A stretch of 59,966 nucleotides of DNA from positions 1 through 59,966 of the forward strand of contig DAOUIX010000186.1 in assembly GCA_034423235.1 (NCBI GenBank), written 5' to 3'. A model generated the notes under the pieces. It worked only from the letters and a program-made list of their open reading frames with translations, was not told the DNA's origin and made no database searches. A program made the translations under genes and the position numbers. This document shows positions 28,830 to 43,372 of the stretch, in pieces. The stretch's first letter is position 1. Every line of letters begins with the position of its first letter. This stretch comes from Chloroflexota bacterium. GTDB taxonomy: Bacteria; Chloroflexota; UBA11872.

Positions 28830-30008
28830 TCAGGCGTCGGGCAGCGCGGCAAGTCCGGGCAGTTCGCGGCCTTCCAGGAACTCCAGCGTCGCACCGCCGC
28901 CGGTGCTGAGGTGGCCCATCCGATCCGCCACGCCCGCGGCCTGTACCGCCGCCAGCGCATCGCCTCCCGCTACCACCACAAAGGCCGGCGCATCCGCCAG
29001 CCCACGCGCAACGGCCAGCGTGCCCTGGGCGAATGGCTCGTGTTCATACACGCCCAGGGGTCCGTTCCAAACGACGGTACGGGCACTCGCCAACTCGTCC
29101 AGGTAGGCGGCCGTCGTGGCGGGACCGATGTCCAGAGCCATCTGGTCCTCGGGAACCTGATCCGCGGGAGCGATAGTCGTGACGGCGGCGGCATCCACTT
29201 CCGATGCCGCGACCGCGTCCACCGGCAGCAGGATTCGACAGCCGGAAGCCGCGGCAGCCGCCCGCACGGCGGCGACAACCTCGGACTGACCTGGCTCCAC
29301 CAGCGAACGTCCAAGTGCGCCCCCCGTGTTGGCTAGAAACGTATTCGCAATGCCTCCGCCCAGCAGCAGCGCGCCGACCTGCGTCGCCAGGCGCCGCAGC
29401 ACGCCAATCTTGTCGGAGACCTTCGCTCCGCCCAGGACTGCCACGTAGGGACGGGCCGGACTGCGAGTCAAGCGGTCCAGGGCCTGAATCTCAGCGTGCA
29501 TCAGGGGTCCGGCACCCGCCGGTAGCAGCTGCGCGACGCCCACCGTGCTGGCATGGGCCCGGTGCGCCGTGCCAAAAGCATCGTTGACGTAAACGTCGGC
29601 CAATCTCGCCAACGCAGCCGCGTGCGAAGGGTCGTTTTGCTCCTCGCCTGGGTGGAAGCGCAGGTTCTCAAGGAGCAGCACCTCGCCGTCGTCCAGGCTC
29701 CGAGTCGGGGCTTCAACGGCGGCGCCAACGCTGTCCGTGGCAAGCGTCACGCGGCAGCCCAGCAGCTCGCCCAGGCGTTCGGCCACCGGCGCCAAGGAAA
29801 GGGCCGAATCCGGCTTGCCCTTCGGCCGACCTAAATGTGAGGCCACCACCAGGCGCGCGCCCCGCGCCCGCAGGCTGGCCAGCGTGGGCACGATGGCCCG
29901 GAGGCGGGTGTCGTCGCGAATCGTGCCACCCTTCAGCGGCACGTTGGCATCCACTCGCAGGAATACACGCCGGCCGCCGACCTCAAGGGTGTGACTCCCG
30001 CGTTTCAC
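28830..30008 (-). CDS. pgk: Phosphoglycerate kinase
   Basis: RVDANVPL, SHLGRPKG, LLENLRF, NDAFGTAHRAHAS, GGAKVSDKI, STGGGATLEFLEG. Confidence 0.97.
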   Translation of the reverse strand: MKRGSHTLEVGGRRVFLRVDANVPLKGGTIRDDTRLRAIVPTLASLRARGARLVVASHLGRPKGKPDSALSLAPVAERLGELLGCRVTLATDSVGAAVEAPTRSLDDGEVLLLENLRFHPGEEQNDPSHAAALARLADVYVNDAFGTAHRAHASTVGVAQLLPAGAGPLMHAEIQALDRLTRSPARPYVAVLGGAKVSDKIGVLRRLATQVGALLLGGGIANTFLANTGGALGRSLVEPGQSEVVAAVRAAAAASGCRILLPVDAVAASEVDAAAVTTIAPADQVPEDQMALDIGPATTAAYLDELASARTVVWNGPLGVYEHEPFAQGTLAVARGLADAPAFVVVAGGDALAAVQAAGVADRMGHLSTGGGATLEFLEGRELPGLAALPDA

Positions 30009-30136: not shown

Positions 30137-31156
30137 TCAGACCTGCGCCGGCGCTCCGACGCGCTCGCCGATGGTCATGGCCGCGTCGCCGATCCGGCAG
30201 GCGTAGCCCCACTCGTTGTCGTACCAGGCCGCGACCTTCACCAGGTCGCCGCCGATGACCATGGTCGAGCTGGCGTCGACGATCGAGGAGCGGGTGTCGC
30301 CCTTGAGATCAATCGAGACCAGCGGCTCGTCCGACACGCCCAAAATGCCGTCCAACCGGCCGGCCGCCGCGGCACGCAGCGCGTCCGTAACCTCACCTTC
30401 GCCAGCCGGACGCTCCAGGTGCGCAACAAACTCGACGATCGAGACCGTCGAGACCGGAACCCGATACGCCGCGCCATGCATGCGCCCATCGAGCTCCGGG
30501 ATCGCCAGTCCGATCGCGCGGGCCGCGCCAGTGCTGGCCGGCACGATGCTCATCGCGCTGGCTCGCGCTTCGCGCAAATCGCTGATGGCGGTGTCCACCA
30601 GGCTTTGCGAGGACGTATAGGCATGAATAGTGGACATCAGCCCCTTGCGCACCCCGAACTCGCGGTGAACGACGTCCAGCGGCGGCGCCAGGCCGTTGGT
30701 GGTGCAGGAGGCGTTGCTGACGACGTAATGGTTGGCGGGGTCGAACTGATCGTCGTTAACGCCCAGGACCACGGTGAGGTCGGCATCGCTGGACGGCGCG
30801 GAAATCAGGACGCGCCCCGCCCCGCCGTCCAGGTGCGCCGCGGCCCGGGCGCGCTCGGTGCCCACGCCGGTCGACTCCACGACGAGATCGGCGCCCAAGT
30901 CACCCCAGGGCATCGTGGACCAGTCGCGCACGGAGTAATACGGGATCGGCGTCCCGCCCACGACGAGCCCGCTGGCCGTGGCTTCCACGCTTTGACCGAA
31001 GCGGCCGTAGTTGCTGTCGTATTGCAGGAGGTGCGCGGAGGCGCGCAACTCGGCGAGGTCGTTGATACCGACGACTTCGGCCTGGGGATGGCGCTCCAAG
31101 AGCGCCCGCAAGGCCAGGCGGCCGATCCGGCCAAACCCGTTGATTCCAATTCGCAC
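30137..31156 (-). CDS. gap: Type I glyceraldehyde-3-phosphate dehydrogenase
   Basis: GINGFGRIGR, SNASCTTN, STGAA, WYDNEWGY; GTG 31156 with RBS GAGGAG. Confidence 0.95.
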   Translation of the reverse strand: MRIGINGFGRIGRLALRALLERHPQAEVVGINDLAELRASAHLLQYDSNYGRFGQSVEATASGLVVGGTPIPYYSVRDWSTMPWGDLGADLVVESTGVGTERARAAAHLDGGAGRVLISAPSSDADLTVVLGVNDDQFDPANHYVVSNASCTTNGLAPPLDVVHREFGVRKGLMSTIHAYTSSQSLVDTAISDLREARASAMSIVPASTGAARAIGLAIPELDGRMHGAAYRVPVSTVSIVEFVAHLERPAGEGEVTDALRAAAAGRLDGILGVSDEPLVSIDLKGDTRSSIVDASSTMVIGGDLVKVAAWYDNEWGYACRIGDAAMTIGERVGAPAQV

Positions 31157-31510
31157 GATGCTACTCCTCGGTGTCACAGCGCAGGGAATGACTGGCCGCC
31201 GTGGCCGGTCCGACGGCTTCCGATCACCTTCGACATTGCGACATCAGCGGTGGCCGCAACTGGCCCTCGCCGCGCGCGGGCGGAGTTTCGGGACGACGCA
31301 GCCGGGCGCTGATATTACGCGACAGATAACTGGAATGAGCGGCGACACCGCCGTTCCAACCAGTTCGTGAGCATTCGTTTCAATGCGGCCAAGGCTGCGT
31401 GGCCTAAACTTCCACCAAGCTGGGCGTGCGGTGGGCAGCCGCTGAATCCGCGGACTGGAGCGTGCGACGGATGAACGCTCCGGTGGCCGCGCCCCTGCCG
31501 ACGTGAGCCG

Positions 31511-32371
31511 ATGACCACCACGTCCCCGCCCGCGTCCGTACCCTCCCTGGCTGCGGTCATGCAGCGTGCGGGTGGAGAGAATTTTCCCGTGGCGTCGCGG
31601 CTGCTGCCGGGCCAGCTGCGTCGACACCTCCACAACATCTACGGCTTCGCCCGCCTGACCGATCAGTTGGGCGACTACGCCGAAGGCGACCGGCTGGCGT
31701 TGCTGGACTGGCTGGATGGCGAAGTCGATGCCGTCTACAACGGCGGCCTGCCCAGTCACGACGTGATGCGGCGCATTGTTCCGACGGTGGCGCGCTATTC
31801 GATCCCGGAAGCGCCGTTCCGGGCACTCATCAACGCAAATCGACAGGACCAGCGGGTCAGCCGCTACGCCACGTTCGACGACCTGGTCGCCTACTGCGAA
31901 CTCTCCGCCAATCCAGTCGGCCACCTGGTGCTCTACGTCTTTGAGGCGGCCACGCCGGAACGGTTCTGGCTCTCGGACCTGATCTGCACGGCCCTGCAAC
32001 TGACCGAGCACTGGCAGGACGTGGCCGAGGACTTGGAAATGGACCGCGTCTATCTACCCCAGGAGGACCTGGACCGCTTCAACTGCTCGGTTGACGTGAT
32101 CGCCGAACGCCGGCCCTCAAGCGAGTTTCGGCAGTTGATGCAGTTCGAGGTCGACCGCGCGTGGGGCCTTTTCGATCGGGGCGCGACGCTGGTGCGGACC
32201 CTTCCCGGCGTGCGCGGCATGGCCATCGCGGCGTTCATCGAAGGCGGACGCGCCGCCCTGCAGGCGATTCGCGAGGCGGACTACGACGTCCTCACGCAGT
32301 CGCCGCGTCCCCATGCACGGGCCAGAGTCCTGGCGGCGCTGCGCGTCATGCGTATCGCGCTGGACTGGTAG
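31511..32371 (+). CDS. hpnC: Squalene synthase HpnC
   Basis: ENFPVASRLL, IYGFARLTDQLGD, YCELSANPVGHLVL, HWQDVAED. Confidence 0.92.
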   Translation: MTTTSPPASVPSLAAVMQRAGGENFPVASRLLPGQLRRHLHNIYGFARLTDQLGDYAEGDRLALLDWLDGEVDAVYNGGLPSHDVMRRIVPTVARYSIPEAPFRALINANRQDQRVSRYATFDDLVAYCELSANPVGHLVLYVFEAATPERFWLSDLICTALQLTEHWQDVAEDLEMDRVYLPQEDLDRFNCSVDVIAERRPSSEFRQLMQFEVDRAWGLFDRGATLVRTLPGVRGMAIAAFIEGGRAALQAIREADYDVLTQSPRPHARARVLAALRVMRIALDW

Positions 32372-32374
32372 CCG

Positions 32375-33211
32375 ATGGACCCGGCCGCGGCCTACGCCCA
32401 CTGCGAACACATCACGCGCACGCAGGCCGGCAATTTCTACTGGGGCATCCGCCTCCTGCCGGGGCCGAAGCGACGGGCGCTCTGCGCGGTCTACGCTCTG
32501 GCGCGTGCGATCGACGACATCGGCGACGGCAACCTGCCCACCGAGACCAAGGCGAGGGCGCTGTGCGAGGCGCGAGAACGGCTGGGGGAGATCGGCCCGG
32601 ATGTCGACGAGCCGGTGCTGGCTGCGTTGGGGCACGCGTCCCAGCGGCTGCCGATTCCGATGGCTGCCTTTGGCGAACTTATCGACGGCGTCGAGATGGA
32701 CGTGCGGGGCACGACCTATGAGACGTTCGACGACTTGGTGGTGTATTGCCGCCGGGTGGCAGGCACCATCGGCCGACTCTCGCTGGGCGTGTTCGGCGCC
32801 GAGAACTTGGAACGCGCCGCGCCGCTGGCCGACGCCCTGGGTGTGGCGCTGCAACTCACCAACATCCTGAGGGACGTTCGGGAAGACTTTCGGAACGGTC
32901 GTATCTATCTGCCGCGGGAGGATCTTGAGCGTTTTGATTGCACGTTGGACCCTGACAGTCCCCAGGCTCCGAGATTCCCGGAGATGATGCGCTTCCAGAC
33001 AAGCCGCGCCGCCGAGTGGTTCGACGAGGGCCTGCGGCTGCGGCCAATGCTGGATCCGCGCAGTTCCGCCTGCGCCGGAGCGATGGCGGGCATCTACCGT
33101 CGCGTGCTTCAACGCATTGAGCAGGACCCCGCCGCCGTGATGCAAGGACGCGTGGCGCTGCCGGCCTGGGAGAAGGCGTTGGTCGCCGCAAAGAGCCTGG
33201 CGGGCGGGTGA
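32375..33211 (+). CDS. hpnD: Presqualene diphosphate synthase HpnD
   Basis: NFYWGIRLLP, ARAIDDIGD, LQLTNILRDVRED..GRIYLP. Confidence 0.92.
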   Translation: MDPAAAYAHCEHITRTQAGNFYWGIRLLPGPKRRALCAVYALARAIDDIGDGNLPTETKARALCEARERLGEIGPDVDEPVLAALGHASQRLPIPMAAFGELIDGVEMDVRGTTYETFDDLVVYCRRVAGTIGRLSLGVFGAENLERAAPLADALGVALQLTNILRDVREDFRNGRIYLPREDLERFDCTLDPDSPQAPRFPEMMRFQTSRAAEWFDEGLRLRPMLDPRSSACAGAMAGIYRRVLQRIEQDPAAVMQGRVALPAWEKALVAAKSLAGG

Positions 33212-34560
33212 GCGGCCCGCGGGTCGTGGTAGCTGGCGGTGGGCTGGCCGGAATCAGCGCGGCCCTTGCGCTGGCGGACGCGGGATTGTCGGTCACCCTG
33301 CTGGAAGCGCGCGGACGCCTGGGAGGGGCAACCTACTCGTTTCAGCGAGACGGGTTCTGGCTCGACAACGGCCAGCACGTTTTTTTGCGCTGTTGCACGG
33401 CCTATCGAGCGTTCATCAAGCGCATCGGATCCGGCGACCTGGTGACCCTGCAGCGACGGCTGGACATCCCCGTGATCCACCCCGACCGTGGTACCAGCCG
33501 GCTGGCTCGCTCGGGCCTGCCGGCACCTCTGCATTTGGGGCCGAGCCTTGCCGCCTACCGCCACCTGAGCCGCCTGGACAAGCTGCACGTCGCGCGTACG
33601 GCTGTGGCGCTGGGGAGGCTCGACCTCGGCGACCGAAGCCTCGACGAGCAGACGTTCGGTCACTGGCTGCGTCAACGCGGTGCGACGTCGCGGTCGCTGG
33701 AAGCGCTCTGGGACCTGATCGTGCTGCCAACCCTCAACCTGCCGTCCGACGAGGCTTCGCTCTGGCTCGGCGCCATGGTGTTTCAGGTCGGGCTGCTGAC
33801 CGACGGCCCCGCCGCGGATCTCGGTTACACAACCGTTCCGCTTGGCCAGGCGCACGGCGACCGAGCAGCCGCCGCCCTCATCGCATCGAAGGTCGATGTG
33901 CATCTCGACTCTGCGGTTTCCGCCATCGAGCTATCGGAGGATGCCCGTGTCCACGTGCGAGTGGGGGGGCGGTGCATTGCGGCGGCGGCCCTGGTCCTGG
34001 CCGTGCCGCACGAGCAGGCCGCCCGACTCGTCCCGGCGAAGGTTCATGCAGAATCCAAGTCCTTCGCGGACCTGGGGCACAGCCCGATTGTGAACTTGCA
34101 CGTGATCTACGACCGGCGGGTCATGGATCACCCATTCGCCGCCGGCGTGGACACGCGGGTGCAGTGGGTGTTTGACCGCAGCGCCGCGGCGGGCTTGACT
34201 ATGGGCCAGTGTCTGGCCGTTTCGCTTTCGGGCGCCACGGCATATGCCGCGCGCCCGACCGAGGAGTTGCGCGCGATGTTCCTTCCCGAACTCGCGCGGC
34301 TGTTCCCTCGAGCCGCCGAAGCGCGCGTGAGCGCGTTCTATGTCACGCGAGAGCCCCGGGCGACCTTTCGGCCCGTGCCCGGCACGTTGCGGGTGCGGCC
34401 GCGCGCCACGACTGCCGACCCGCGCATTACGTTGGCCGGCGCCTGGACCGACACTGGCTGGCCGGCCACGATGGAAGGGGCCGTCCGCAGCGGCCGCCGG
34501 GCGGCCCGCAGCACACTCCTGGCCCTGGGCCGTGAACGGGGCCTGCCGACGGCCGCATGA
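33208..34560 (+). CDS. hpnE: Hydroxysqualene dehydroxylase HpnE (FAD)
   Basis: VVVAGGGLAG, DNGQHVFLRC, AGAWTDTGWPATMEGAVRSG. Confidence 0.93.
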   Translation: MSGPRVVVAGGGLAGISAALALADAGLSVTLLEARGRLGGATYSFQRDGFWLDNGQHVFLRCCTAYRAFIKRIGSGDLVTLQRRLDIPVIHPDRGTSRLARSGLPAPLHLGPSLAAYRHLSRLDKLHVARTAVALGRLDLGDRSLDEQTFGHWLRQRGATSRSLEALWDLIVLPTLNLPSDEASLWLGAMVFQVGLLTDGPAADLGYTTVPLGQAHGDRAAAALIASKVDVHLDSAVSAIELSEDARVHVRVGGRCIAAAALVLAVPHEQAARLVPAKVHAESKSFADLGHSPIVNLHVIYDRRVMDHPFAAGVDTRVQWVFDRSAAAGLTMGQCLAVSLSGATAYAARPTEELRAMFLPELARLFPRAAEARVSAFYVTREPRATFRPVPGTLRVRPRATTADPRITLAGAWTDTGWPATMEGAVRSGRRAARSTLLALGRERGLPTAA

Positions 34561-36452
34561 GCGTCGAAGTCTCCGCGCGGCCTAGCGCCCTATCCAACGC
34601 CATTGAGCGGGCGCGACGCTACCTGCTGGGCCTGCAAAGCCCCGAGGGCTGGTGGAAAGGCGAGCTGGAAAGCAACGTCACCATCGAGGCGGAGGATCTC
34701 TTCCTGCGGCGCTACCTGGGCATCCTGGACACCGGCACGACCGAGCGGACCGCGCGTTGGATTCGCACGCGTCGACAGGCGGACGGGACCTGGGCCAACT
34801 TCCATGGCGGTCCGCCAGACCTTCATACGACGACCGAGGCCTACGTGGCACTGCGGTTGGCCGGCGATCAGCCCGACGATGCGCATATGCGGCAGACGGC
34901 GGCCTGGATCCGGCAGCAGGGCGGCGTGGAGGCGACCCGCACCTTTACCCGCTTCTGGTTTGCGCTGAACGGTTGGTGGTCCTGGGACGACGTACCGGCC
35001 ATGCCACCCGAGGTCATGCTGCTCCCGCCCTGGTGGCCGCTGAACATCTACGACTTCGCCTGCTGGGCGCGGCAGACATACGTGGCGTTGACGATTGTCC
35101 GCTCCCACGAGCCCGTGTGCCCCGCGCCGTTTCCGATCGACGAACTACGTACGCATCGCATGCCCCCCTTGGATCTATCGCTCCTGACCTGGACGGGGGT
35201 CTTCAACCATGTCGACCGATTGCTCCGGTGGTACCAGAAGCGTCCAATTGGCTGGTTGCGCAAGGTGGCGCTGAGCCGCGCCGAAGCCTGGATTGTGCGG
35301 CGACAGGAGCGTGACGGTTCCTGGGGCGGCATCCAGCCAGCGTGGGTCAACTCGATCATTGCGCTGACCCTGCGCGGCTATCCGCTGGATCACCCGATGA
35401 TCGCGCGGGCCCTGGATGGACTTGACACTTTCACCATTGACGACGGACATACGCGTCGCCTGGAAGCCTGCCAGTCGCCGGTGTGGGACACCGCGATGGC
35501 CATCGAGGCGCTCAGCGACTCCGGCACGCCAGGGGACGATGCCCGGCTGATTCAAGCGGCGGACTGGCTGCTGGACCAGGAAGTGCACGTGAAAGGCGAC
35601 TGGAGTGTCCGGCGGCCCCATCTTGCGCCCGCAGGCTGGGCCTTCGAGTTTGCCAACGACAACTATCCCGACGTCGACGACACAGCCGAAGTTGGGCTGG
35701 CGCTGCGGCGGGTCGACCATCCCGATCCCGACCGTGTCGACGCCGCGCTGGTCCGCGCACGGGGATGGCTGGAGGGCATGCAGTCGCGCAACGGCGGCTG
35801 GGGCGCTTTCGACGCCGATAACACCAATACGCTGTGCCGCCAACCGTCCTTCCGCGACTTCGGCGAGGTCATCGACCCGCCGGCGGCGGACGTGTCCGCG
35901 CGTGCCCTGCACTTCCTGGCGCAAGAGGACGCCCTGGCTACCGAAACGGCGCGACGCGGACTGGCCTGGGTGCGAGCCGAGCAGGAAACTGACGGCTCGT
36001 GGTTCGGCCGCTGGGGCGCCAACCACATCTACGGGCTAAGCGTCGTGGTTCCCGCCCTGGTCGCCGCCGGCACGCCGACGAGCGATCCCGCGCTGCGACG
36101 GGCCGTAGCCTGGCTGGAAGCTCACCAAAACGCCGATGGCGGCTGGGGCGAGGACCTGCGCTCCTACGAAGACCCCGCCTGGATCGGTCGCGGCGCCAGC
36201 ACCGCCTCCCAGACGGCCTGGGCCCTGCTGGCCCTGCTGGAGGCGGACGCCGAATCGCCGGCAATCCAACCCGGCGTTGACTACCTGATTCGCACCCAAC
36301 GCGAAGACGGAAACTGGGACGAAGACCTCTACACCGGCACCGGCTTCCCGGGCGCTTTCTACATCAACTATCACCTCTATCGCCTGCTGTTTCCGTTGAT
36401 GGCACTCGGGCGGTACGCCAGCAAAGCGGGGCGGGACGAGGACGGCATGTGA
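34557..36452 (+). CDS. shc: Squalene-hopene cyclase
   Basis: YPDVDDTA (DxDD), QW repeats (QERDGSWGG, QSRNGGWGAFD, QETDGSWFGRWG, QNADGGWGE), GTGFPGAFYINYHLY. Confidence 0.96.
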   Translation: MSVEVSARPSALSNAIERARRYLLGLQSPEGWWKGELESNVTIEAEDLFLRRYLGILDTGTTERTARWIRTRRQADGTWANFHGGPPDLHTTTEAYVALRLAGDQPDDAHMRQTAAWIRQQGGVEATRTFTRFWFALNGWWSWDDVPAMPPEVMLLPPWWPLNIYDFACWARQTYVALTIVRSHEPVCPAPFPIDELRTHRMPPLDLSLLTWTGVFNHVDRLLRWYQKRPIGWLRKVALSRAEAWIVRRQERDGSWGGIQPAWVNSIIALTLRGYPLDHPMIARALDGLDTFTIDDGHTRRLEACQSPVWDTAMAIEALSDSGTPGDDARLIQAADWLLDQEVHVKGDWSVRRPHLAPAGWAFEFANDNYPDVDDTAEVGLALRRVDHPDPDRVDAALVRARGWLEGMQSRNGGWGAFDADNTNTLCRQPSFRDFGEVIDPPAADVSARALHFLAQEDALATETARRGLAWVRAEQETDGSWFGRWGANHIYGLSVVVPALVAAGTPTSDPALRRAVAWLEAHQNADGGWGEDLRSYEDPAWIGRGASTASQTAWALLALLEADAESPAIQPGVDYLIRTQREDGNWDEDLYTGTGFPGAFYINYHLYRLLFPLMALGRYASKAGRDEDGM

Positions 36453-36539
36453 CGGCGGTAACGCCCCGGGAACAGCTGTTGAAAACACACTTGGCGCCCC
36501 TTGCGCCCGCGCAGTCTCAGCATTACCAGGGCCAAGAGA

Positions 36540-36564
36540 CATACCTGGGTATAATCAGAGTATG
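36540..36564 (+). promoter_or_regulatory. Candidate TA promoter/operator
   Basis: TATAAT at 36550-36555 overlapping inverted repeats ATACC-TG-GGTAT and CATAC...GTATG. Confidence 0.5.
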
Positions 36565-36798
36565 AAAACGGCCATTTCACTGCCGGACGAACTCTTCGAG
36601 GCGGCCGACGCGCTGGCCACGGAACTCGGCGTTTCTCGCAGCAAGCTGTATGCCACCGCCGTCGCCGAGTATCTCGACCGGCGCCGTGATGAACGCATCA
36701 CGGAACTGCTGGACGAGGTCTACCGTGAGCAGCCGAGTCAGTTGGCGCCCGAACTGCGCCGCATGCAGGGGCGCAGTCTCGCGGCTGACGAGTGGTAG
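36562..36798 (+). CDS. RHH antitoxin (MazE/ChpI-like)
   Basis: MKTAISLPDELFEAAD...LGVSRSKLYATAVAEYL; overlaps toxin start. Confidence 0.88.
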   Translation: MKTAISLPDELFEAADALATELGVSRSKLYATAVAEYLDRRRDERITELLDEVYREQPSQLAPELRRMQGRSLAADEW

Positions 36799-37136
36799 TC
36801 GAGCGGGGCGACATCTGGTGGGCCGACCTGGACGAGCCGCGAGGATCTGAGCCTGGGTTTCGACGTCCCGTGCTCATCGTGCAGGCCGAGGCATTCAACC
36901 GTAGCCGGCTGCAAACGGTTCTGGGGCTAGCGCTGACGACAAACCTGCGCCTCGCTGCCGCTCCAGGGAATGTCCTGCTTTCGGCGTCGGAATCCGGGCT
37001 CCCTCGACCTTCCGTGGTCAACGTGACGCAACTGATGACAGTGGACCGCGCCTTTCTCTCGGAAGCCGCTGGTCGGGTGCCACCCCGACTGATGGCGCGT
37101 ATTGACGACGGCCTACGTCTGGTTCTCGGCCTCTAG
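36792..37136 (+). CDS. mazF: PemK/MazF-family endoribonuclease toxin
   Basis: ERGDIWWADL...GSEPGFRRPVLIVQAEAFN...GLPRPSVVNVTQLMTVDR. Confidence 0.92.
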   Translation: MVVERGDIWWADLDEPRGSEPGFRRPVLIVQAEAFNRSRLQTVLGLALTTNLRLAAAPGNVLLSASESGLPRPSVVNVTQLMTVDRAFLSEAAGRVPPRLMARIDDGLRLVLGL

Positions 37137-37203
37137 GACTCTGGACGCCTGCGTACTCCCGTCGTAGGTTTGGCGGCCACCTCTCGAAGGTGAACGGTTT
37201 TTC

Positions 37204-38214
37204 ATGGGCGTTCCACTGCGTCAGAGCCTGACGGTGGGGTGGTACCTCTTCCGTCAGCGGCTGCAGGGGCGGGAGAAGTTTCCGCTGATTGTGGAACTGG
37301 AGCCGCTCTACGCCTGCAACCTGGCCTGCGAGGGCTGCGGCAAGATTCAGCACCCCACCGAGACGCTGCGTCGGCGCATGCCGGTGGAGCAGGCGCTGGC
37401 CGCGATCGAGGAGAGCGGCGCGCCGATGGTCTCCATCGCCGGCGGCGAACCGCTAATTCATCCCGAGATCGACCGCATCGCCGAGGAACTGGTGCGCCGG
37501 CACAAGTTCGTGTACCTGTGCACCAACGCCATCATGCTGGAGCAGAAGCTGCACCTGTTCACACCCTCGCCGTATTTTGCCTTCGCCATCCACCTGGACG
37601 GTCTGAAGGAACGACACGACCAGTCCGTGGCGCGCGACGGCGTGTTTGAGGTAGCTGTCGCCGCCATCAAGGCGGCGCAAAAAGCCGGATTTCGCGTCAC
37701 GACCAACACCACCTTCTTCACCCACGATTCCGCGCAGGACGTGCGGGCGGTGCTGGACTTCCTCAGCGACGAGCTGGAAGTCGACAGCATGATGATCTCG
37801 CCGGGCTACGCCTACGAGAAGGCGCCCGACCAGGACCACTTCCTGCCGGTCGATCGCACGCGCGCTGTCTTCCGCGAAGCCTTCGCTGAGGGGCGGCGCG
37901 ATCGCTGGCGCCTGAACCACAGCCCACTGTTTCTGGATTTCCTCGAGGGCAAGGTCGACTACCAATGCACCGCGTGGGGAATCCCCAGCTACTCGATCTT
38001 CGGCTGGCAGCGGCCCTGCTATCTGATGGCCGACGGTTACACGGAGTCGTACGCGGAGCTGCTGGAAACCACCGATTGGGACGCCTACGGCCGCGGCAAG
38101 GACCCGCGCTGCGCCAACTGCATGGCGCACTGCGGCTACGAGCCCACGGCGGTGCTGGACACCGCGTCGTCGGCCAAGGAGTCATTTCGCGCCTTGGCCG
38201 GCGCCCTACGCTAG
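37204..38214 (+). CDS. hpnH: Adenosyl-hopene transferase HpnH (radical SAM)
   Basis: LEPLYACNLACEGCGKI (CxxxCxxC), PGYAYEKAPDQDHFL, DPRCANCMAHCGYEPTAV. Confidence 0.95.
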   Translation: MGVPLRQSLTVGWYLFRQRLQGREKFPLIVELEPLYACNLACEGCGKIQHPTETLRRRMPVEQALAAIEESGAPMVSIAGGEPLIHPEIDRIAEELVRRHKFVYLCTNAIMLEQKLHLFTPSPYFAFAIHLDGLKERHDQSVARDGVFEVAVAAIKAAQKAGFRVTTNTTFFTHDSAQDVRAVLDFLSDELEVDSMMISPGYAYEKAPDQDHFLPVDRTRAVFREAFAEGRRDRWRLNHSPLFLDFLEGKVDYQCTAWGIPSYSIFGWQRPCYLMADGYTESYAELLETTDWDAYGRGKDPRCANCMAHCGYEPTAVLDTASSAKESFRALAGALR

Positions 38215-38223
38215 GGCGTCCGC

Positions 38224-38976
38224 TTAGCCAAGCCAACGCTCCAGTCGTCGGTACACGCTGGGCAACGTGGCCTGCAGCACGATCGGAATCCGCATCCAGC
38301 CCGGAATCACGACGTCCGTCCGGTCGCGCGCAATGGCGCGAACGACCGCCCGCGCCATGCGTTCCGGCGGCATTGGCCGCGGCCACCCACGCTCGTAGGG
38401 CGCGCCGCGACGTTCGAAGAAAGACGTCTGAACAACGCCCGGTGTCACGACCGTCACACCTACGCCCGTCCCAGCCAATTCCGCGTCCAGGGCACGGCTA
38501 AAGACCGCCAACGCGCCCTTGGAGGCGCTGTAGACCGTCTCATTCGGCACGCCCAAGCATCCCGCAATCGAGGCTACGTTAACCACGCGACCGCGACCTC
38601 GCTGCCGCATGCCGGGCAGCACCGCCTTCGTCAACGAGATTGGAGCGCGCACGTTCACGGCGATCAGCCGTTCAATGTCCTCCGCGCTGTGCTGGGCCAG
38701 CGGTGCGAAGCGTCCAGACCCTGCGCAGTTGACCAGGATGTCCATCGGCGGAAGGTCGGGCAGCGCCTGTTCCACGAACTGCCGTAGCCCGCCGGCTGAT
38801 TCGAGGTCAACGCGCTGCACGGTGACGCCGCTGGATTCTGCCAGGGCCCCGAGTGCCGGCAGATCACGCCCGAGACCCACGACCTGAGCGCCCGACTCCA
38901 CCAAGTTGATGGCGACGGCGCGTCCGATCCCGCTGCTGGCGCCCGTAACGAGAGCGTTGGAGCCAGCGATCTCCAT
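38224..38976 (-). CDS. Short-chain dehydrogenase/reductase
   Basis: LVTGASSGIG, LVNCAG, NVASIAG, YSASK. Confidence 0.9.
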   Translation of the reverse strand: MEIAGSNALVTGASSGIGRAVAINLVESGAQVVGLGRDLPALGALAESSGVTVQRVDLESAGGLRQFVEQALPDLPPMDILVNCAGSGRFAPLAQHSAEDIERLIAVNVRAPISLTKAVLPGMRQRGRGRVVNVASIAGCLGVPNETVYSASKGALAVFSRALDAELAGTGVGVTVVTPGVVQTSFFERRGAPYERGWPRPMPPERMARAVVRAIARDRTDVVIPGWMRIPIVLQATLPSVYRRLERWLG

Positions 38977-39093
38977 GCCAGATAGACCATTCGCCACACG
39001 CGGGCCGGGGAGCGCTAGTATTGCGCGAATCCCCATGCAACGGGCAGTATCGATCAGCGCCCGCCGCTCGGGTGTTTGCAAAGGGGGATCGCA

Positions 39094-40959
39094 ATGGACC
39101 GCATACTCGACCGGATTGCGGATCCAGCGGATCTGCGCACCCTGACCGACGCGGAACTTGACCGCCTGGCCGGCGAGATTCGTCAGCTCATCATCGACAC
39201 CGTCGACGCCAACGGCGGGCACCTGGCCAGCAACCTCGGTGTCGTCGAGATCACCCTGGCGCTACACCGCGTGCTCGAGAGCCCCAGAGACAAGATCGTC
39301 TGGGACACCAGTAATCAAACCTACCCCCACAAGCTCGTTACCGGCCGGGCCACCGACTTTCCGACCCTGCGCAAGCCCGGCGGTCTGTCTGGGTTCGCCG
39401 CCCGTGAGGAAAGCGCCCACGATGTGATGGGAGCCGGGCACGCCGGCACGGGCGTATCCGCGGGCGTGGGTATCGCCGTGGCCAGCCAGTTGCGGGGCGA
39501 AGCGTCGTCCACCGTCGCCATCATCGGCGACGGGTCCTTCACCTCGGGCGTGGTGTTCGAAGCGCTGAACCAGGCCGGCGACCTCGGGCTGCCGTTCGTC
39601 GTTCTGCTGAACGACAACGGCATGTCCATCTCGCCAAACGTGGGCGCGTTGAGTCGCAACATGGGTCGCGGCCGCGAAACCTGGGAGCCGGACGACCCCG
39701 AGGCACGGACCCGCTTTACGGCCACCCAGATCGCGACCGAGCCGACCGAGCCCTACGCCAATGCGGCCGACTTCTGCGCGGCCTTCGGGTTCGAGTACGT
39801 GGGGCCGGTAGACGGGCATGATCGGCCAGAACTCGAAGACGTGATTCGCGACGCCGTGGCCCGGCGACGTCCGGTGCTGATCCACGCCTTTACCCGCAAG
39901 GGCAAGGGCCTGCCGGCGGCCGAAGCCGATCCGGTAACGCTGCACCAGCCCGGGACCGCCCAGGCGGTGGGCGCCGCCAACGCCACCAGCTACAGCAAGG
40001 TCTTGGCACGAACGCTCACAGACCTGGCCCGCGAGGACGACCGCATCGTGGCCATCAGCGCGGCCATGTGCGAGGGCACCGCGCTGGCCGACATGCAGCG
40101 GGAGCTTCCCGACCGTGTGTTTGACGTCGGCATCGCCGAGAGCCACGCCGTGGCCATGGCCGCCGGACTTGCCACGCAAGGGCTACGGCCCGTGGTCTGC
40201 ATATACAGCACGTTCCTGCAGCGGGCGTTCGACCAAATCGTGCACGACGTGGCCATCCAGAACCTTCCGGTGATCCTGGGCGTCGACCGCGCGGGAATCG
40301 TCGGCGACGACGGACGCACGCACCACGGGGTGCTGGACCTGGCCTATCTGCGCGCGATCCCCAACTTTGTCGTGGCCGCACCCAGAGACGAGGACGAACT
40401 GCGCCACTTGTTCCGCACGGCGGTGGCCAGCGACCGTCCGTTCGCCATCCGCTATTCGCGCGGCTCCGGCGTCGGCGTTCCCCTGCAGGGGCCCCCGCGC
40501 GTTCTGCCGATTGGTCGAGCCGAAATGCTGCGGGACGGTTCGGACATCGCGCTGCTCGCCATTGGCTGGGGCGTGGCGCCCGCACTGGAGGCCGCCGAGC
40601 GGCTGGAGCGCCTCGGCGTCCACGCCGCCGTCGTGAACACTCGCTTCGTCAAGCCGCTGGACCGCGAACTCATCTGCGAGCTTTCGGCCCGCACCCGTTG
40701 CGTGATCACGATTGAAGACCACAATCTCATGGGCGGGTTCGGAAGCGCGGTGGTGGAGATGCTGGCCGATAACGGCTTGGGCGACGTGCAGGTCCGGCGC
40801 GTCGCCATGCCGGACATGTTCCATGAGCACGGACCCGCCGACAGCATTCGATCCGCGCACGGCTTGAGCGCCTCCGGCATTGTGGATGCGGCCTGCGCTC
40901 TCACCGACCACGCCGTCGCTGTCCGGATCGACGCGGGACGCCTGATCGTCGGATCCTGA
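39094..40959 (+). CDS. dxs: 1-deoxy-D-xylulose-5-phosphate synthase
   Basis: GGHLASNLGVVE, IIGDGS...NDNGMSI, DVGIAESH, YSTFLQRAFDQ. Confidence 0.95.
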   Translation: MDRILDRIADPADLRTLTDAELDRLAGEIRQLIIDTVDANGGHLASNLGVVEITLALHRVLESPRDKIVWDTSNQTYPHKLVTGRATDFPTLRKPGGLSGFAAREESAHDVMGAGHAGTGVSAGVGIAVASQLRGEASSTVAIIGDGSFTSGVVFEALNQAGDLGLPFVVLLNDNGMSISPNVGALSRNMGRGRETWEPDDPEARTRFTATQIATEPTEPYANAADFCAAFGFEYVGPVDGHDRPELEDVIRDAVARRRPVLIHAFTRKGKGLPAAEADPVTLHQPGTAQAVGAANATSYSKVLARTLTDLAREDDRIVAISAAMCEGTALADMQRELPDRVFDVGIAESHAVAMAAGLATQGLRPVVCIYSTFLQRAFDQIVHDVAIQNLPVILGVDRAGIVGDDGRTHHGVLDLAYLRAIPNFVVAAPRDEDELRHLFRTAVASDRPFAIRYSRGSGVGVPLQGPPRVLPIGRAEMLRDGSDIALLAIGWGVAPALEAAERLERLGVHAAVVNTRFVKPLDRELICELSARTRCVITIEDHNLMGGFGSAVVEMLADNGLGDVQVRRVAMPDMFHEHGPADSIRSAHGLSASGIVDAACALTDHAVAVRIDAGRLIVGS

Positions 40960-40969
40960 GGCCCTGCCG

Positions 40970-42016
40970 CTGAACGCGCTGACGTCGGCCCCCGTCGCGG
41001 CGCCCGAGGTTCTTGGGCGCTATCGCGAGCGGATTGACGCCGAGCTCGAACGTGCGCTGCGCGGGCCCGACCTGCCGCTCTACACGATGGCGCGGTATCA
41101 CCTTGGCCAGGTTGACGCCGACGGCGCGCCCGCGACCATGCAACGGGGCAAGGCCATCCGTCCCACGCTCTGCCTTCTCATGTGCGAGGCGCTGGGGGGC
41201 GACCTGGATGCGGCGCTCCCGGCGGCGGCCGGGCTGGAACTCCTGCACAACTTCACGCTGGTCCACGACGACGTGATGGACGATGACCGGGTCCGGCACC
41301 ACCGTCCGACGGTCTGGGCGTTGTGGGGACGCTCCCAAGCCATTGATGCCGGCGACCTGCTGCACGTGCTGGCAACGCTAAGCGTGCTGCGCAGCGGGGG
41401 CGGCGGCGCGTCGCCCGCGCTGGCCAAGGACGCAACCGAAGTCATGATGCAGGGATGCCGGCTGGTAACGGAAGGCCAGCATCTGGACATCGCGTTCGAG
41501 ACGGCCGCGGACGTTAGCGTGCCCGACTACCTGGACATGATTTCGCGCAAATCGGCGGCGCTGCTCGCGGTGGCGTTCGAACTCGGCGCCATCTTTGCCG
41601 GCAACGACCCGGCCACGCGCGAGGCCTGCCGCGCATACGGCAGGGAACTCGGAATCATGTTTCAGATTCGCGACGACGCGCTGGGGATCTGGGGGGACTC
41701 AGCGGTGACCGGAAAGCCGGTGGGCGCCGATATCCGAAAACGCAAGAAGACTCTGCCGATCATCCACGCGCTGGCGGCCGCTTCCAAACCCGACCGGACG
41801 CGGTTGCGCGCGATGTTCGGCAGCAACGACGGCTCGCCTGATGTTGAGACCACCGTGGCGATTCTGACGCGGGCCGGGTCTCGACCTTTCACCGAGCAGC
41901 GGATTTCGGTCCATGCGCAACAAGCAGCCACCGTGCTGGCCAACCTGCCCGTGAGCCCGTGGGGTCGCCGAAATCTGGGCGCGGTCACCACCTACATCGG
42001 CACGCGCGACCGGTAG
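40970..42016 (+). CDS. Polyprenyl (FPP/GGPP) synthase
   Basis: GKAIRP, LVHDDVMDDD (FARM), EGQHLD, FQIRDD, GKPVGADIRKRKKTLP; frame is open upstream of ATG 41087, so the start (CTG ~40964/40970 after GAGG) is uncertain. Confidence 0.9.
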   Translation: MNALTSAPVAAPEVLGRYRERIDAELERALRGPDLPLYTMARYHLGQVDADGAPATMQRGKAIRPTLCLLMCEALGGDLDAALPAAAGLELLHNFTLVHDDVMDDDRVRHHRPTVWALWGRSQAIDAGDLLHVLATLSVLRSGGGGASPALAKDATEVMMQGCRLVTEGQHLDIAFETAADVSVPDYLDMISRKSAALLAVAFELGAIFAGNDPATREACRAYGRELGIMFQIRDDALGIWGDSAVTGKPVGADIRKRKKTLPIIHALAAASKPDRTRLRAMFGSNDGSPDVETTVAILTRAGSRPFTEQRISVHAQQAATVLANLPVSPWGRRNLGAVTTYIGTRDR

Positions 42017-42052
42017 CCCGGCCCTGAACTCAGGTATCGAGGGCCTGAGGCC

Positions 42053-43372
42053 CTAGCGTCCCGCGCCCACCGCCAACGGTGTGGGCGTCTTGCGCGAGGC
42101 TTCCTGGTACAGCTCAATCAAGGCTGCCGCCAAGCTCTCGGAATCGTGATGCCGTGGATCGTTGTGGTCTACCACGTCGGCCATTACGGCCTGCACGCCG
42201 GTTTCCAGCAGTTCGACCTGTACCGCTGGATCACATTCGACCAGTCGCGACCCGCTGCCCGGCTGCACGCCCAAGCGAGTGTTGCTGTTGACCAGCGTGT
42301 ACTGAAAGAGATCCGAGCCGACGTGTGACGTAAGCGACGCCACATGATCGGTAAGGCTATACCCGTCCGTCTCGCCGGGCTCCGTGGCCACGTTGCAGAC
42401 ATACACCTTGACGGCGCTGGAGGCTCGCACCGCCGTTGCGATATCGCCGACCAGCAGATTGGGAACCACGCTGGTATGAACGCTGCCCGGCCCCAGCACG
42501 ATCATGTCGGCGGCCAGCAATTCCTTCACCGCCTCGTCGTTGGCCGCGGCATAGCGGGGCTCGATCAGCACTCGGGCGATCGGCTTGCCCGACGATCGGA
42601 TACGGGATTCGCCGCGCACGATCGAGCCGTCCGTCATCTGCGCGGCCAGCCGCACGTCCGTGAGGGTGGACGGCAGGATGCGCCCACGCACGCGCAGAAC
42701 CTCGCTCAAGTCATTGACGCCGCGCTCGAAGTTGCCCTGGTTCAGATCCGTCATGGCGGCAATCAGCAGGTTGCCGAGGCTGTGTCCCTGCAACCCCTGC
42801 CCACGGCTGAAGCGATACTCCATCACGTCCTGCATCAGGGACTCGGAATCGGCCAGCGCGGCCAGGCACTGCCGAATGTCGCCGGGCGGCATGAGCCCCA
42901 ACTCCTCGCGCAGCCGCCCCGAACTGCCGCCGTCATCCGCCACCGTCACCACGGCGGTGATGTTGTTGGTGTGCTCCTTCAGCCCGCGCAGCAGCACGCC
43001 GAGCCCGGTGCCCCCGCCAATGGCCACCACGCGCGGCCCACGCTGCAACCGTCGACTCTGATAGAGAACTTCAGCCAGGTTGTCCTGCGGGTCCACGACG
43101 ACCGACAACACGCTGCGCCCCAGCAAGAATGCGCCGGCTGCCGCAATCAGCAGTCCCAACGTGCCCACCGTGAGTTCACGCACGGGGTGAGCAAGAAACT
43201 GCAGGGTCAGGTAATACACCACGGTGCCCGCCGGCCCCGGGATGTCGATGGTGCGGTAGACGAAGGCCAGGAACATGGCCATGGCCAGCGCCAGGACCAC
43301 CGTCCCCAGAAAGATCAGCAGCAGATAGCGTTTTACGCCGATCCCGAGCGTCAGCCAGCGACGAGAGCGCAT
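42053..43372 (-). CDS. yvcK: YvcK/GlmR (UPF0052) gluconeogenesis/cell-wall factor with N-terminal TM region
   Basis: IGGGTGL, VTVADDGGSSGRLR, PPGDIR, GHSLGNL, LGPGSVHTSVVPNL. Confidence 0.92.
   Translation of the reverse strand: MRSRRWLTLGIGVKRYLLLIFLGTVVLALAMAMFLAFVYRTIDIPGPAGTVVYYLTLQFLAHPVRELTVGTLGLLIAAAGAFLLGRSVLSVVVDPQDNLAEVLYQSRRLQRGPRVVAIGGGTGLGVLLRGLKEHTNNITAVVTVADDGGSSGRLREELGLMPPGDIRQCLAALADSESLMQDVMEYRFSRGQGLQGHSLGNLLIAAMTDLNQGNFERGVNDLSEVLRVRGRILPSTLTDVRLAAQMTDGSIVRGESRIRSSGKPIARVLIEPRYAAANDEAVKELLAADMIVLGPGSVHTSVVPNLLVGDIATAVRASSAVKVYVCNVATEPGETDGYSLTDHVASLTSHVGSDLFQYTLVNSNTRLGVQPGSGSRLVECDPAVQVELLETGVQAVMADVVDHNDPRHHDSESLAAALIELYQEASRKTPTPLAVGAGR

Follow-up and report, generated by a model that had tools for sequence, protein, structure and literature searches.

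How did a set of hopanoid biosynthesis genes come to lie between yvcK and gap in a Chloroflexota genome, and did they arrive together with the isoprenoid genes beside them? This question was raised by a DNA stretch of 59,966 nucleotides from a Chloroflexota bacterium (NCBI GenBank assembly GCA_034423235.1, contig DAOUIX010000186.1), which was analyzed at its full length and is called the window here. It is contig C186 of an assembly of 3.19 Mb in 235 contigs with 66% GC. An initial annotation, made from the sequence letters alone, described yvcK and gap-pgk on the minus strand, about 11 kb apart, with hpnC, hpnD, hpnE and shc, then hpnH, dxs and a polyprenyl diphosphate synthase gene (pps) between them. 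This description is confirmed: the interval between gap and yvcK runs from 31178 to 42052 (10,875 bp), where that annotation had placed it. The following answer draws on the identities of the genes, the polarity of synteny, copy numbers and positions in trees. The hopanoid (hop) block interrupts an ancestral contiguous yvcK-gap-pgk unit. The insertion is old, and the hop genes, dxs and pps have different histories and are not one cassette. We consider a stepwise assembly likely, in which a core of actinobacterial type was acquired and placed between yvcK and gap, and the native pps and then dxs were recruited to it.

Interruption of the yvcK-gap-pgk unit

Genes were called with Pfam and NCBIfam profiles at their curated cut-offs, and bit scores are given as score versus cut-off. 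All five hopanoid proteins, DXS and YvcK score above the curated NCBIfam equivalog or subfamily cut-offs. The left flank of the block is gap, encoding glyceraldehyde-3-phosphate dehydrogenase (GAPDH; 30137-31177, minus strand; Gp_dh_N and Gp_dh_C), followed by pgk, the downstream member of the ancestral unit (28830-30008, minus strand; PF00162, E = 6.7e-138). The right flank is the CofD-related gene yvcK (42053-43372, minus strand; TIGR01826, 349 versus 196 bits), which is convergent with pps. The left insertion junction is the divergent intergenic region between gap and hpnC (31178-31510).

Relatives were compared at several distances. The window belongs to family f1, whose genera are g1 (the window's own), g2 and g8. 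Its sister is family f2 (g3 to g7), of the same order, f3 and f4 are further families of the class, and f6 is a family of another class. Throughout f2, the gene after yvcK is gap, on the same strand and past a spacer of 170-260 bp, and pgk comes next. This was read from coordinates in 16 of 16 genomes from five genera, and five of these genomes were confirmed separately. In f3, yvcK adjoins gap at all five loci, and pgk was seen at three of them. The unit is contiguous and co-directional in f6 as well. In every relative examined, pgk comes after gap. The contiguity in f2, f3 and f6 indicates that yvcK-gap-pgk is the ancestral arrangement and that the split state in f1 is derived. The insertion proposed by the initial annotation is thus upheld, and the linkage of yvcK to gap in these relatives disposes of its concern that the two genes might never be linked in this lineage.

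The longer template that it had invoked, rapZ-yvcK-whiA-gap-pgk-tpiA, did not hold. A rapZ-yvcK-whiA neighborhood is found in Firmicutes and Actinobacteria, and in Actinobacteria it is often followed by gap-pgk-tpiA. The relatives of the window resemble it in that yvcK is directly followed by gap-pgk. They differ in that rapZ (PF03668) and whiA (PF02650) were detected in none of the 41 genomes of the order, with control genomes positive. In the window, tpiA was not found after pgk, since the gene there is selB, convergent with pgk. A further difference is that YvcK carries an N-terminal extension of about 114 aa ahead of the CofD domain. The extension has no family match. Most of the Chloroflexota matches listed have alignments that start within about residues 1-8, so the extension is conserved. 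The template therefore fits only in the reduced form yvcK-gap-pgk. In two f2 genomes (G025 and G030; L117 and L118), the intact unit lies directly beside rnpA-yidC-jag, genes that are usually near the replication origin.

The age of the insertion was read from its distribution and divergence within f1. Seven named metagenome-assembled genomes (MAGs) of g1 have the order selB/pgk/gap, then hpnCDE-shc...hpnH-SDR-dxs-pps, then yvcK/HAD/HK, where SDR is a short-chain dehydrogenase/reductase gene. The arrangement in g2 is the same without dxs. Both junctions are kept in g8 at two separate places, one reading gap, hpnCDE-shc-hpnH and the other SDR-pps, yvcK. The gap-hpnC and yvcK-pps junctions are therefore common to all three genera of the family, which places yvcK, pps-SDR-hpnH-shc-hpnE-hpnD-hpnC, gap in the f1 ancestor. 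Intact or as a pseudogene, shc is present in 21 of 24 g1 genomes, including the window's own, as well as in g2 and g8.

The hop proteins diverge in step with the flanking housekeeping proteins. Identity to g2 is 62% for squalene-hopene cyclase (SHC) and 79% for HpnH, compared with 69% for gap, 62% for pgk, 73% for yvcK and 69% for dxs. Identity to g4, a genus of f2, is 60% for SHC, 58% for yvcK, 58% for gap and 53% for dxs. Within f1, the SHC tree agrees with the gap+pgk tree. The GC content of the block (0.65-0.70) and its GC content at third codon positions (0.77-0.86) are the same as in the flanks, and no tRNA or flanking repeats were found, nor an integrase at the gap-hpnC junction. A recent genomic island was considered and ruled out, given no shift in composition, no marks of mobility and no patchy presence. 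The insertion is not recent and predates the split of the f1 genera, since the arrangement is common to three genera and SHC follows the species tree in f1. This is the pattern that the initial annotation had itself set against its proposal, and a reading as a recent acquisition fails.

Origin of the hopanoid core

The core lies on the plus strand. It comprises hpnC (squalene synthase HpnC; 31511-32371; TIGR03464, 297 versus 250 bits), hpnD (presqualene diphosphate synthase; 32375-33211; TIGR03465, 291 versus 279 bits), hpnE (hydroxysqualene dehydroxylase; 33208-34560; TIGR03467, 404 versus 283 bits), shc (34557-36452; TIGR01507, 726 versus 431 bits) and, further along, hpnH, encoding the radical SAM protein adenosylhopane synthase (37204-38214; TIGR03470, 520 versus 225 bits). 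The first four genes are packed with one 3-nt gap and two 4-nt overlaps. SHC has a DVDD motif (DxDD type) at residue 372 and four QW-type repeats, HpnH carries the motif CNLACEGC (CxxxCxxC), and HpnC and HpnD carry Asp-rich motifs.

Of the 401 Chloroflexota genomes sampled, 79 (about 20%) have SHC, and they represent 42 of 217 genera. Chloroflexi were already listed among the phyla bearing SHC and HpnCDE, and a link between Actinobacteria and Chloroflexi has been remarked (PMC7306690). The view of the initial annotation that this is a lineage not commonly regarded as a hopanoid producer is therefore not sustained. Literature searches returned no paper dealing with hopanoid genes in this lineage or with hopanoids in sponge Chloroflexota in a way that covers it. 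Among the genomes searched, SHC is absent from f3, f4 and four of the five f2 genera, g4 being the exception.

In the SHC tree, f1 and g4 fall in a clade with Actinomycetota (support 100/100), and a long branch sets them apart from the 19 other SHCs of Chloroflexota. Within this clade, f1 and g4 are sisters with support of 88/83. An approximately unbiased (AU) test on SHC alone did not reject monophyly of the Chloroflexota sequences (p = 0.074). This leaves room for purely vertical descent, in which an old Terrabacteria or Chloroflexota core resembling the actinobacterial type was lost many times and moved within the genome to a place between yvcK and gap. Such a history would agree with the published proposal that HpnCDE and SHC were present in the common ancestor of Actinobacteria and Chloroflexi (PMC7306690) and with the divergence of the hop genes in step with housekeeping genes inside the order.

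Since the test on SHC alone was not decisive, the flanks of 20 other Chloroflexota clusters were fetched and a five-protein test was made, with 13 loci from 10 families in the concatenate. These clusters also hold hpnCDE, shc and hpnH, and often a nearby prenyl synthase gene. The proteins of the window are closer to those of Actinomycetota, with median identities of 49/56/50/60% for HpnC/D/E/SHC, than to those of other Chloroflexota, at 35-46/38-45/32-40/44-50%. In the tree of HpnC, HpnD, HpnE, SHC and HpnH, f1 and g4 are sisters (94), and the pair is sister to two Actinomycetota MAGs (98). Together they nest among Actinomycetota, and the 13 other Chloroflexota loci form their own clade with support of 100. 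With this concatenate, Chloroflexota monophyly was rejected (delta log-likelihood 40, p = 0.0046). Monophyly of Actinomycetota was rejected more weakly (delta log-likelihood 19, p = 0.027), in a test made after the tree had been seen. The hop core is thus of the Actinomycetota type and is unlike other Chloroflexota clusters, which share the phylum and gene set of the window and differ in sequence type. Horizontal acquisition of the core, as first suggested, is likely in this respect, without the recent date. Purely vertical descent is unlikely, given the five-protein test, the separate clade of the other Chloroflexota clusters and the absence of SHC from f3, f4 and most f2 genera.

The direction of the transfer, and that it happened once, would follow from the nesting of f1 and g4 among Actinomycetota and from their sisterhood. 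Several points weigh against this reading. Besides the result with SHC alone, the Actinomycetota sequences were picked by similarity to the query, the only other phylum was represented by two Myxococcota MAGs, and the hop trees are unrooted and have no outgroup. With this sampling, the direction depends on nesting of moderate support. The concatenate presumes one shared history for five genes. In addition, the genes flanking the g4 cluster map to separate small contigs (C76 and C1) in the fragmented genome of the window.

Another possible explanation, in place of one uptake followed by relocation, is that two related cores of actinobacterial type were acquired, one by f1 straight into the yvcK-gap spacer and one by g4 at another site. 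The clusters of f1 and g4 do lie at different loci, and the Actinomycetota feature of an hpnG-like gene between shc and hpnH is present in g4 and lacking in f1. The moderate support for the sisterhood (88/83 for SHC and 94 for the concatenate) would also allow two events. However, both trees recover f1 and g4 as sister groups, and the 60% identity of SHC between them matches that of housekeeping proteins between the two families (55-62%). We therefore regard two acquisitions as unlikely.

Two further observations concern individual cyclase genes. An in-frame TGA in the SHC gene of g4 was reproduced neither by tblastn nor by the family search and was dropped. In one draft genome of g1 (G016), a 6-kb contig carries an additional SHC with 48% identity (G016:C22:2512-4422; L111), which groups with the SHC of the unrelated Chloroflexota family f52. 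This could be contamination of the bin or a second cyclase.

The dxs and prenyl synthase genes

The gene dxs (39094-40959, plus strand; TIGR00204, 673 versus 466 bits) and the gene pps, which encodes a synthase of the short-chain type (41087-42016, plus strand; PF00348), complete the block toward yvcK. The initial annotation interpreted them as a precursor supply that came with the hopanoid genes. This would make the block one horizontally acquired cassette, in which the hop genes and a dxs and prenyl synthase gene of their own entered in one piece at a fairly recent date. In its favor, the genes form a contiguous block with a content like that of Streptomyces-type hop clusters, which carry dxs and a prenyl synthase gene.

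The copy numbers do not agree with this interpretation. The dxs at the locus is the only one in the window's genome, so the second, housekeeping copy that the initial annotation had suggested looking for was not found there. Across g1, dxs is single-copy, also in complete genomes, except in one draft (G010) with a second match (71% identical) on another contig. In g2 and g8, dxs is sited outside the locus. In the DXS tree, the dxs of the window is sister to that of f2 inside a Chloroflexota clade, far from the hop-linked actinobacterial dxs genes, which are monophyletic. Each genome has one orthologue of pps and one paralogue that is 34% identical. The pps tree separates f1 and f2 from the hop-linked synthases of Actinomycetota with split support of 100, so pps groups with Chloroflexota orthologues. 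In the window, pps lies 4.6 kb downstream of shc. The gene ispG is elsewhere in the genome, on contig C85, indicating that isoprenoids are generally made by the methylerythritol phosphate (MEP) pathway. The f2 genomes have dxs, pps and the hop core at three separate loci. Both dxs and pps are native housekeeping genes; the ancestor of f1 recruited pps to the locus, and that of g1 recruited dxs. A recent single cassette is very improbable, since the trees put both genes beside orthologues from Chloroflexota and distant from the hop-linked copies of actinobacteria, dxs is single-copy and outside the locus in g2 and g8, and three genera are alike, with divergence in step with housekeeping genes and no signal of composition or mobility.

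Under the reverse polarity, isoprenoid genes would have separated yvcK from gap in an ancestor, and f2, f3 and f6 would each have lost or moved them. This reading has nothing specific in its favor beyond being the formal alternative where synteny is compared without a root. It is hardly credible, since the 170-260 bp yvcK-gap spacer would have to be restored precisely and independently in three lineages and since the f2 copies of dxs, pps and the hop core are spread over three loci.

The likeness to a Streptomyces hop cluster, drawn by the initial annotation, holds for the type and order of the core and breaks down for dxs and pps, which are not of the hop-linked type. In Streptomyces coelicolor we take the cluster SCO6759-6771 to comprise hpnC/hopA, hpnD/hopB, hpnE/hopC, polyprenyl synthase/hopD, shc/hopE, an hpnG-like gene, hpnH, ispG, dxs and an aminotransferase gene. 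The window shares with Actinomycetota clusters of this type the order hpnC-hpnD-hpnE...shc...hpnH and the presence of dxs and a prenyl synthase gene in the neighborhood. Their core proteins are the closest relatives of the window's core, by sequence and in trees. As in some actinomycetes, a convergent SDR gene lies past hpnH. In contrast to the S. coelicolor type, no prenyl synthase gene lies between hpnE and shc, which overlap by 4 nt. The block has no hpnG or ispG, with a MazEF pair at the usual position of hpnG. Finally, the dxs and pps of the window are the host's single copies and not paralogues belonging to the cluster.

Two side observations concern dxs in other families. In several f2 genomes, some of them complete (G025, G032-G038 and G040), ispG is present (GcpE, about 465 bits), and no recognizable dxs was found, with either no match or partial transketolase-like matches of 33-35%. 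One of these genomes (G032) carries a hop cluster. These genomes may have a divergent or alternative enzyme that forms 1-deoxy-D-xylulose 5-phosphate. In family f5 (G041:C158, G065:C12 and G099:C123), a weak match to an SHC-like cyclase (PF13243, E from about 1e-33 to 1e-37) was seen some 1 kb away from dxs, apparently an independent linkage of dxs with a terpene cyclase gene.

Later changes, predicted pathway and meaning

Three further genes belong to the block. Between shc and hpnH lie an open reading frame like a ribbon-helix-helix (RHH) antitoxin (36562-36798, plus strand) and a MazF/PemK toxin gene (36792-37136, plus strand; PF02452, E = 8e-27). Past hpnH, and convergent with it, is the classical SDR gene (38224-38976, minus strand; adh_short), with the motifs TGASSGIG and YSASK. 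The gene list first given for the block was correct for the genes that it named and omitted this MazEF pair and the minus-strand SDR. Scans for promoters and terminators gave nothing beyond the expectation from shuffled sequence.

The spacer between shc and hpnH (36453-37203 in the window) was compared with its counterparts in L021-L027, G002, G024 and g8. It is 79-115 bp in g2 and g8 and 0.3-4.5 kb in g1. In g1 it holds varying toxin-antitoxin modules or larger inserts, for example 0.3 kb in L026, 3.7 kb in L025 and 4.5 kb in G002. In g4 it is about 730 bp and holds the hpnG-like gene. The spacer is an insertion hotspot, and the MazEF pair (36562-37136) is a later, genus-specific arrival.

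Parts of the block have also been lost or moved. Three g1 species with genomes of 2.0-2.1 Mb (G005, G009 and G019) have no SHC and keep only pps-dxs between yvcK and gap. In a gap+pgk tree rooted with f2, these species are nested within g1 (98/99) and g2 and g8 branch outside it, which makes the deletion from hpnC through the SDR gene secondary. In another g1 genome (G014), shc is reduced to fragments covering residues 1-121 and 308-381 (G014:C6:2514025-2514531; L112/L113), and hpnCDE, mazEF, hpnH, the SDR gene, dxs and pps are all intact. This pseudogene looks like an ongoing loss of the pathway. In G002, everything from hpnC to pps was relocated as a unit, and G017 has a breakpoint between gap and hpnC.

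Under the stepwise assembly that we favor, the history of the locus would have five steps. The class ancestor would have had yvcK, gap and pgk contiguous and co-directional, and the order would have been without rapZ and whiA. The ancestor of the order would then have taken up hpnC-hpnD-hpnE-shc-hpnH and the convergent SDR gene, all of Actinomycetota type; a single uptake is probable given that the f1 and g4 versions are sister groups. In the f1 ancestor, this core and the cell's own pps would have come between yvcK and gap. In the g1 ancestor, the single housekeeping dxs would have moved between the SDR gene and pps, and toxin-antitoxin modules would have begun to fill the shc-hpnH spacer. 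The last step would include the deletion from hpnC to the SDR gene in three small-genome species, the shc pseudogene in one, and the rearrangements in G002 (block moved), G017 (break beside gap) and g8 (split after hpnH).

The predicted route would lead from farnesyl diphosphate (FPP) derived from the MEP pathway to squalene (HpnCDE), on to hopene or diplopterol (SHC) and then to adenosylhopane (HpnH). The lipids would be made if these genes are active, and co-regulation could be a benefit of their proximity. A further enzyme looked for was the nucleosidase HpnG. No protein in the 41 genomes of the order reaches the 187-bit cut-off of its profile (TIGR03468). Matches below the cut-off, at 80-96 bits, occur in 25 of 25 SHC-bearing genomes, and the best score in the 16 genomes without SHC is no higher than 48 bits. 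In g4, the sub-cut-off match is the gene between shc and hpnH. In the window's genome, the match is a 252-aa protein of the PNP_UDP_1 family on another contig (C96:19715-20473, plus strand; 88 bits). This divergent PNP-family protein is a candidate HpnG encoded away from the cluster. Along with the missing above-threshold match, two results speak against the assignment: the protein is only 30-39% identical to the hop-linked hpnG products of other loci, and by tblastn at E <= 1e-5 it has no match to the cluster-linked gene of g4.

The SDR gene adjoins hpnH in g1, g2 and g4 and adjoins pps in g8. Of 73 Actinomycetota loci, 25 have a homologue close to the cluster (about 45% identity; for example L029, L039, L066 and L068). 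The gene appears to travel with the hop core, which makes its product a candidate oxidoreductase for the modification of hopanoids.

The public SHC loci nearest to that of the window (84-94% identity) all come from MAGs labelled Chloroflexi or Chloroflexota. Their names (SB0662_bin, jk18x, p16x and the chromosome-level OY/OZ records) appear to be those of sponge metagenome projects. Judged by these MAG names and not by sample metadata, the lineage is apparently sponge-associated. A bolder joint reading would be that an abundant sponge-associated family makes C35 hopanoids by a pathway derived from Actinomycetota, and that selection built an isoprenoid supercluster in stages by pulling the cell's only FPP/geranylgeranyl diphosphate synthase gene, and later its only dxs, beside it, splitting the yvcK-gap-pgk operon. 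The SDR would then be the as yet unassigned NAD(P)H-dependent reductase of the step from ribosylhopane to bacteriohopanetetrol. Taken together, these proposals are speculative, and we doubt that all of them hold.

The cluster of the window extends a known kind to another lineage and is not a new pathway, but the way it was assembled is instructive. It offers a clean, dated case of how a biosynthetic locus may be assembled, with an acquired core, native single-copy recruits and then partial decay in reduced genomes. It also cautions that a dxs or prenyl synthase gene beside a terpenoid cluster does not amount to a dedicated second supply unless copy number and phylogeny are checked. For biomarkers, the predicted genes would add one abundant, uncultured marine lineage of Chloroflexota, seemingly associated with sponges, to the probable sources of hopanoids.

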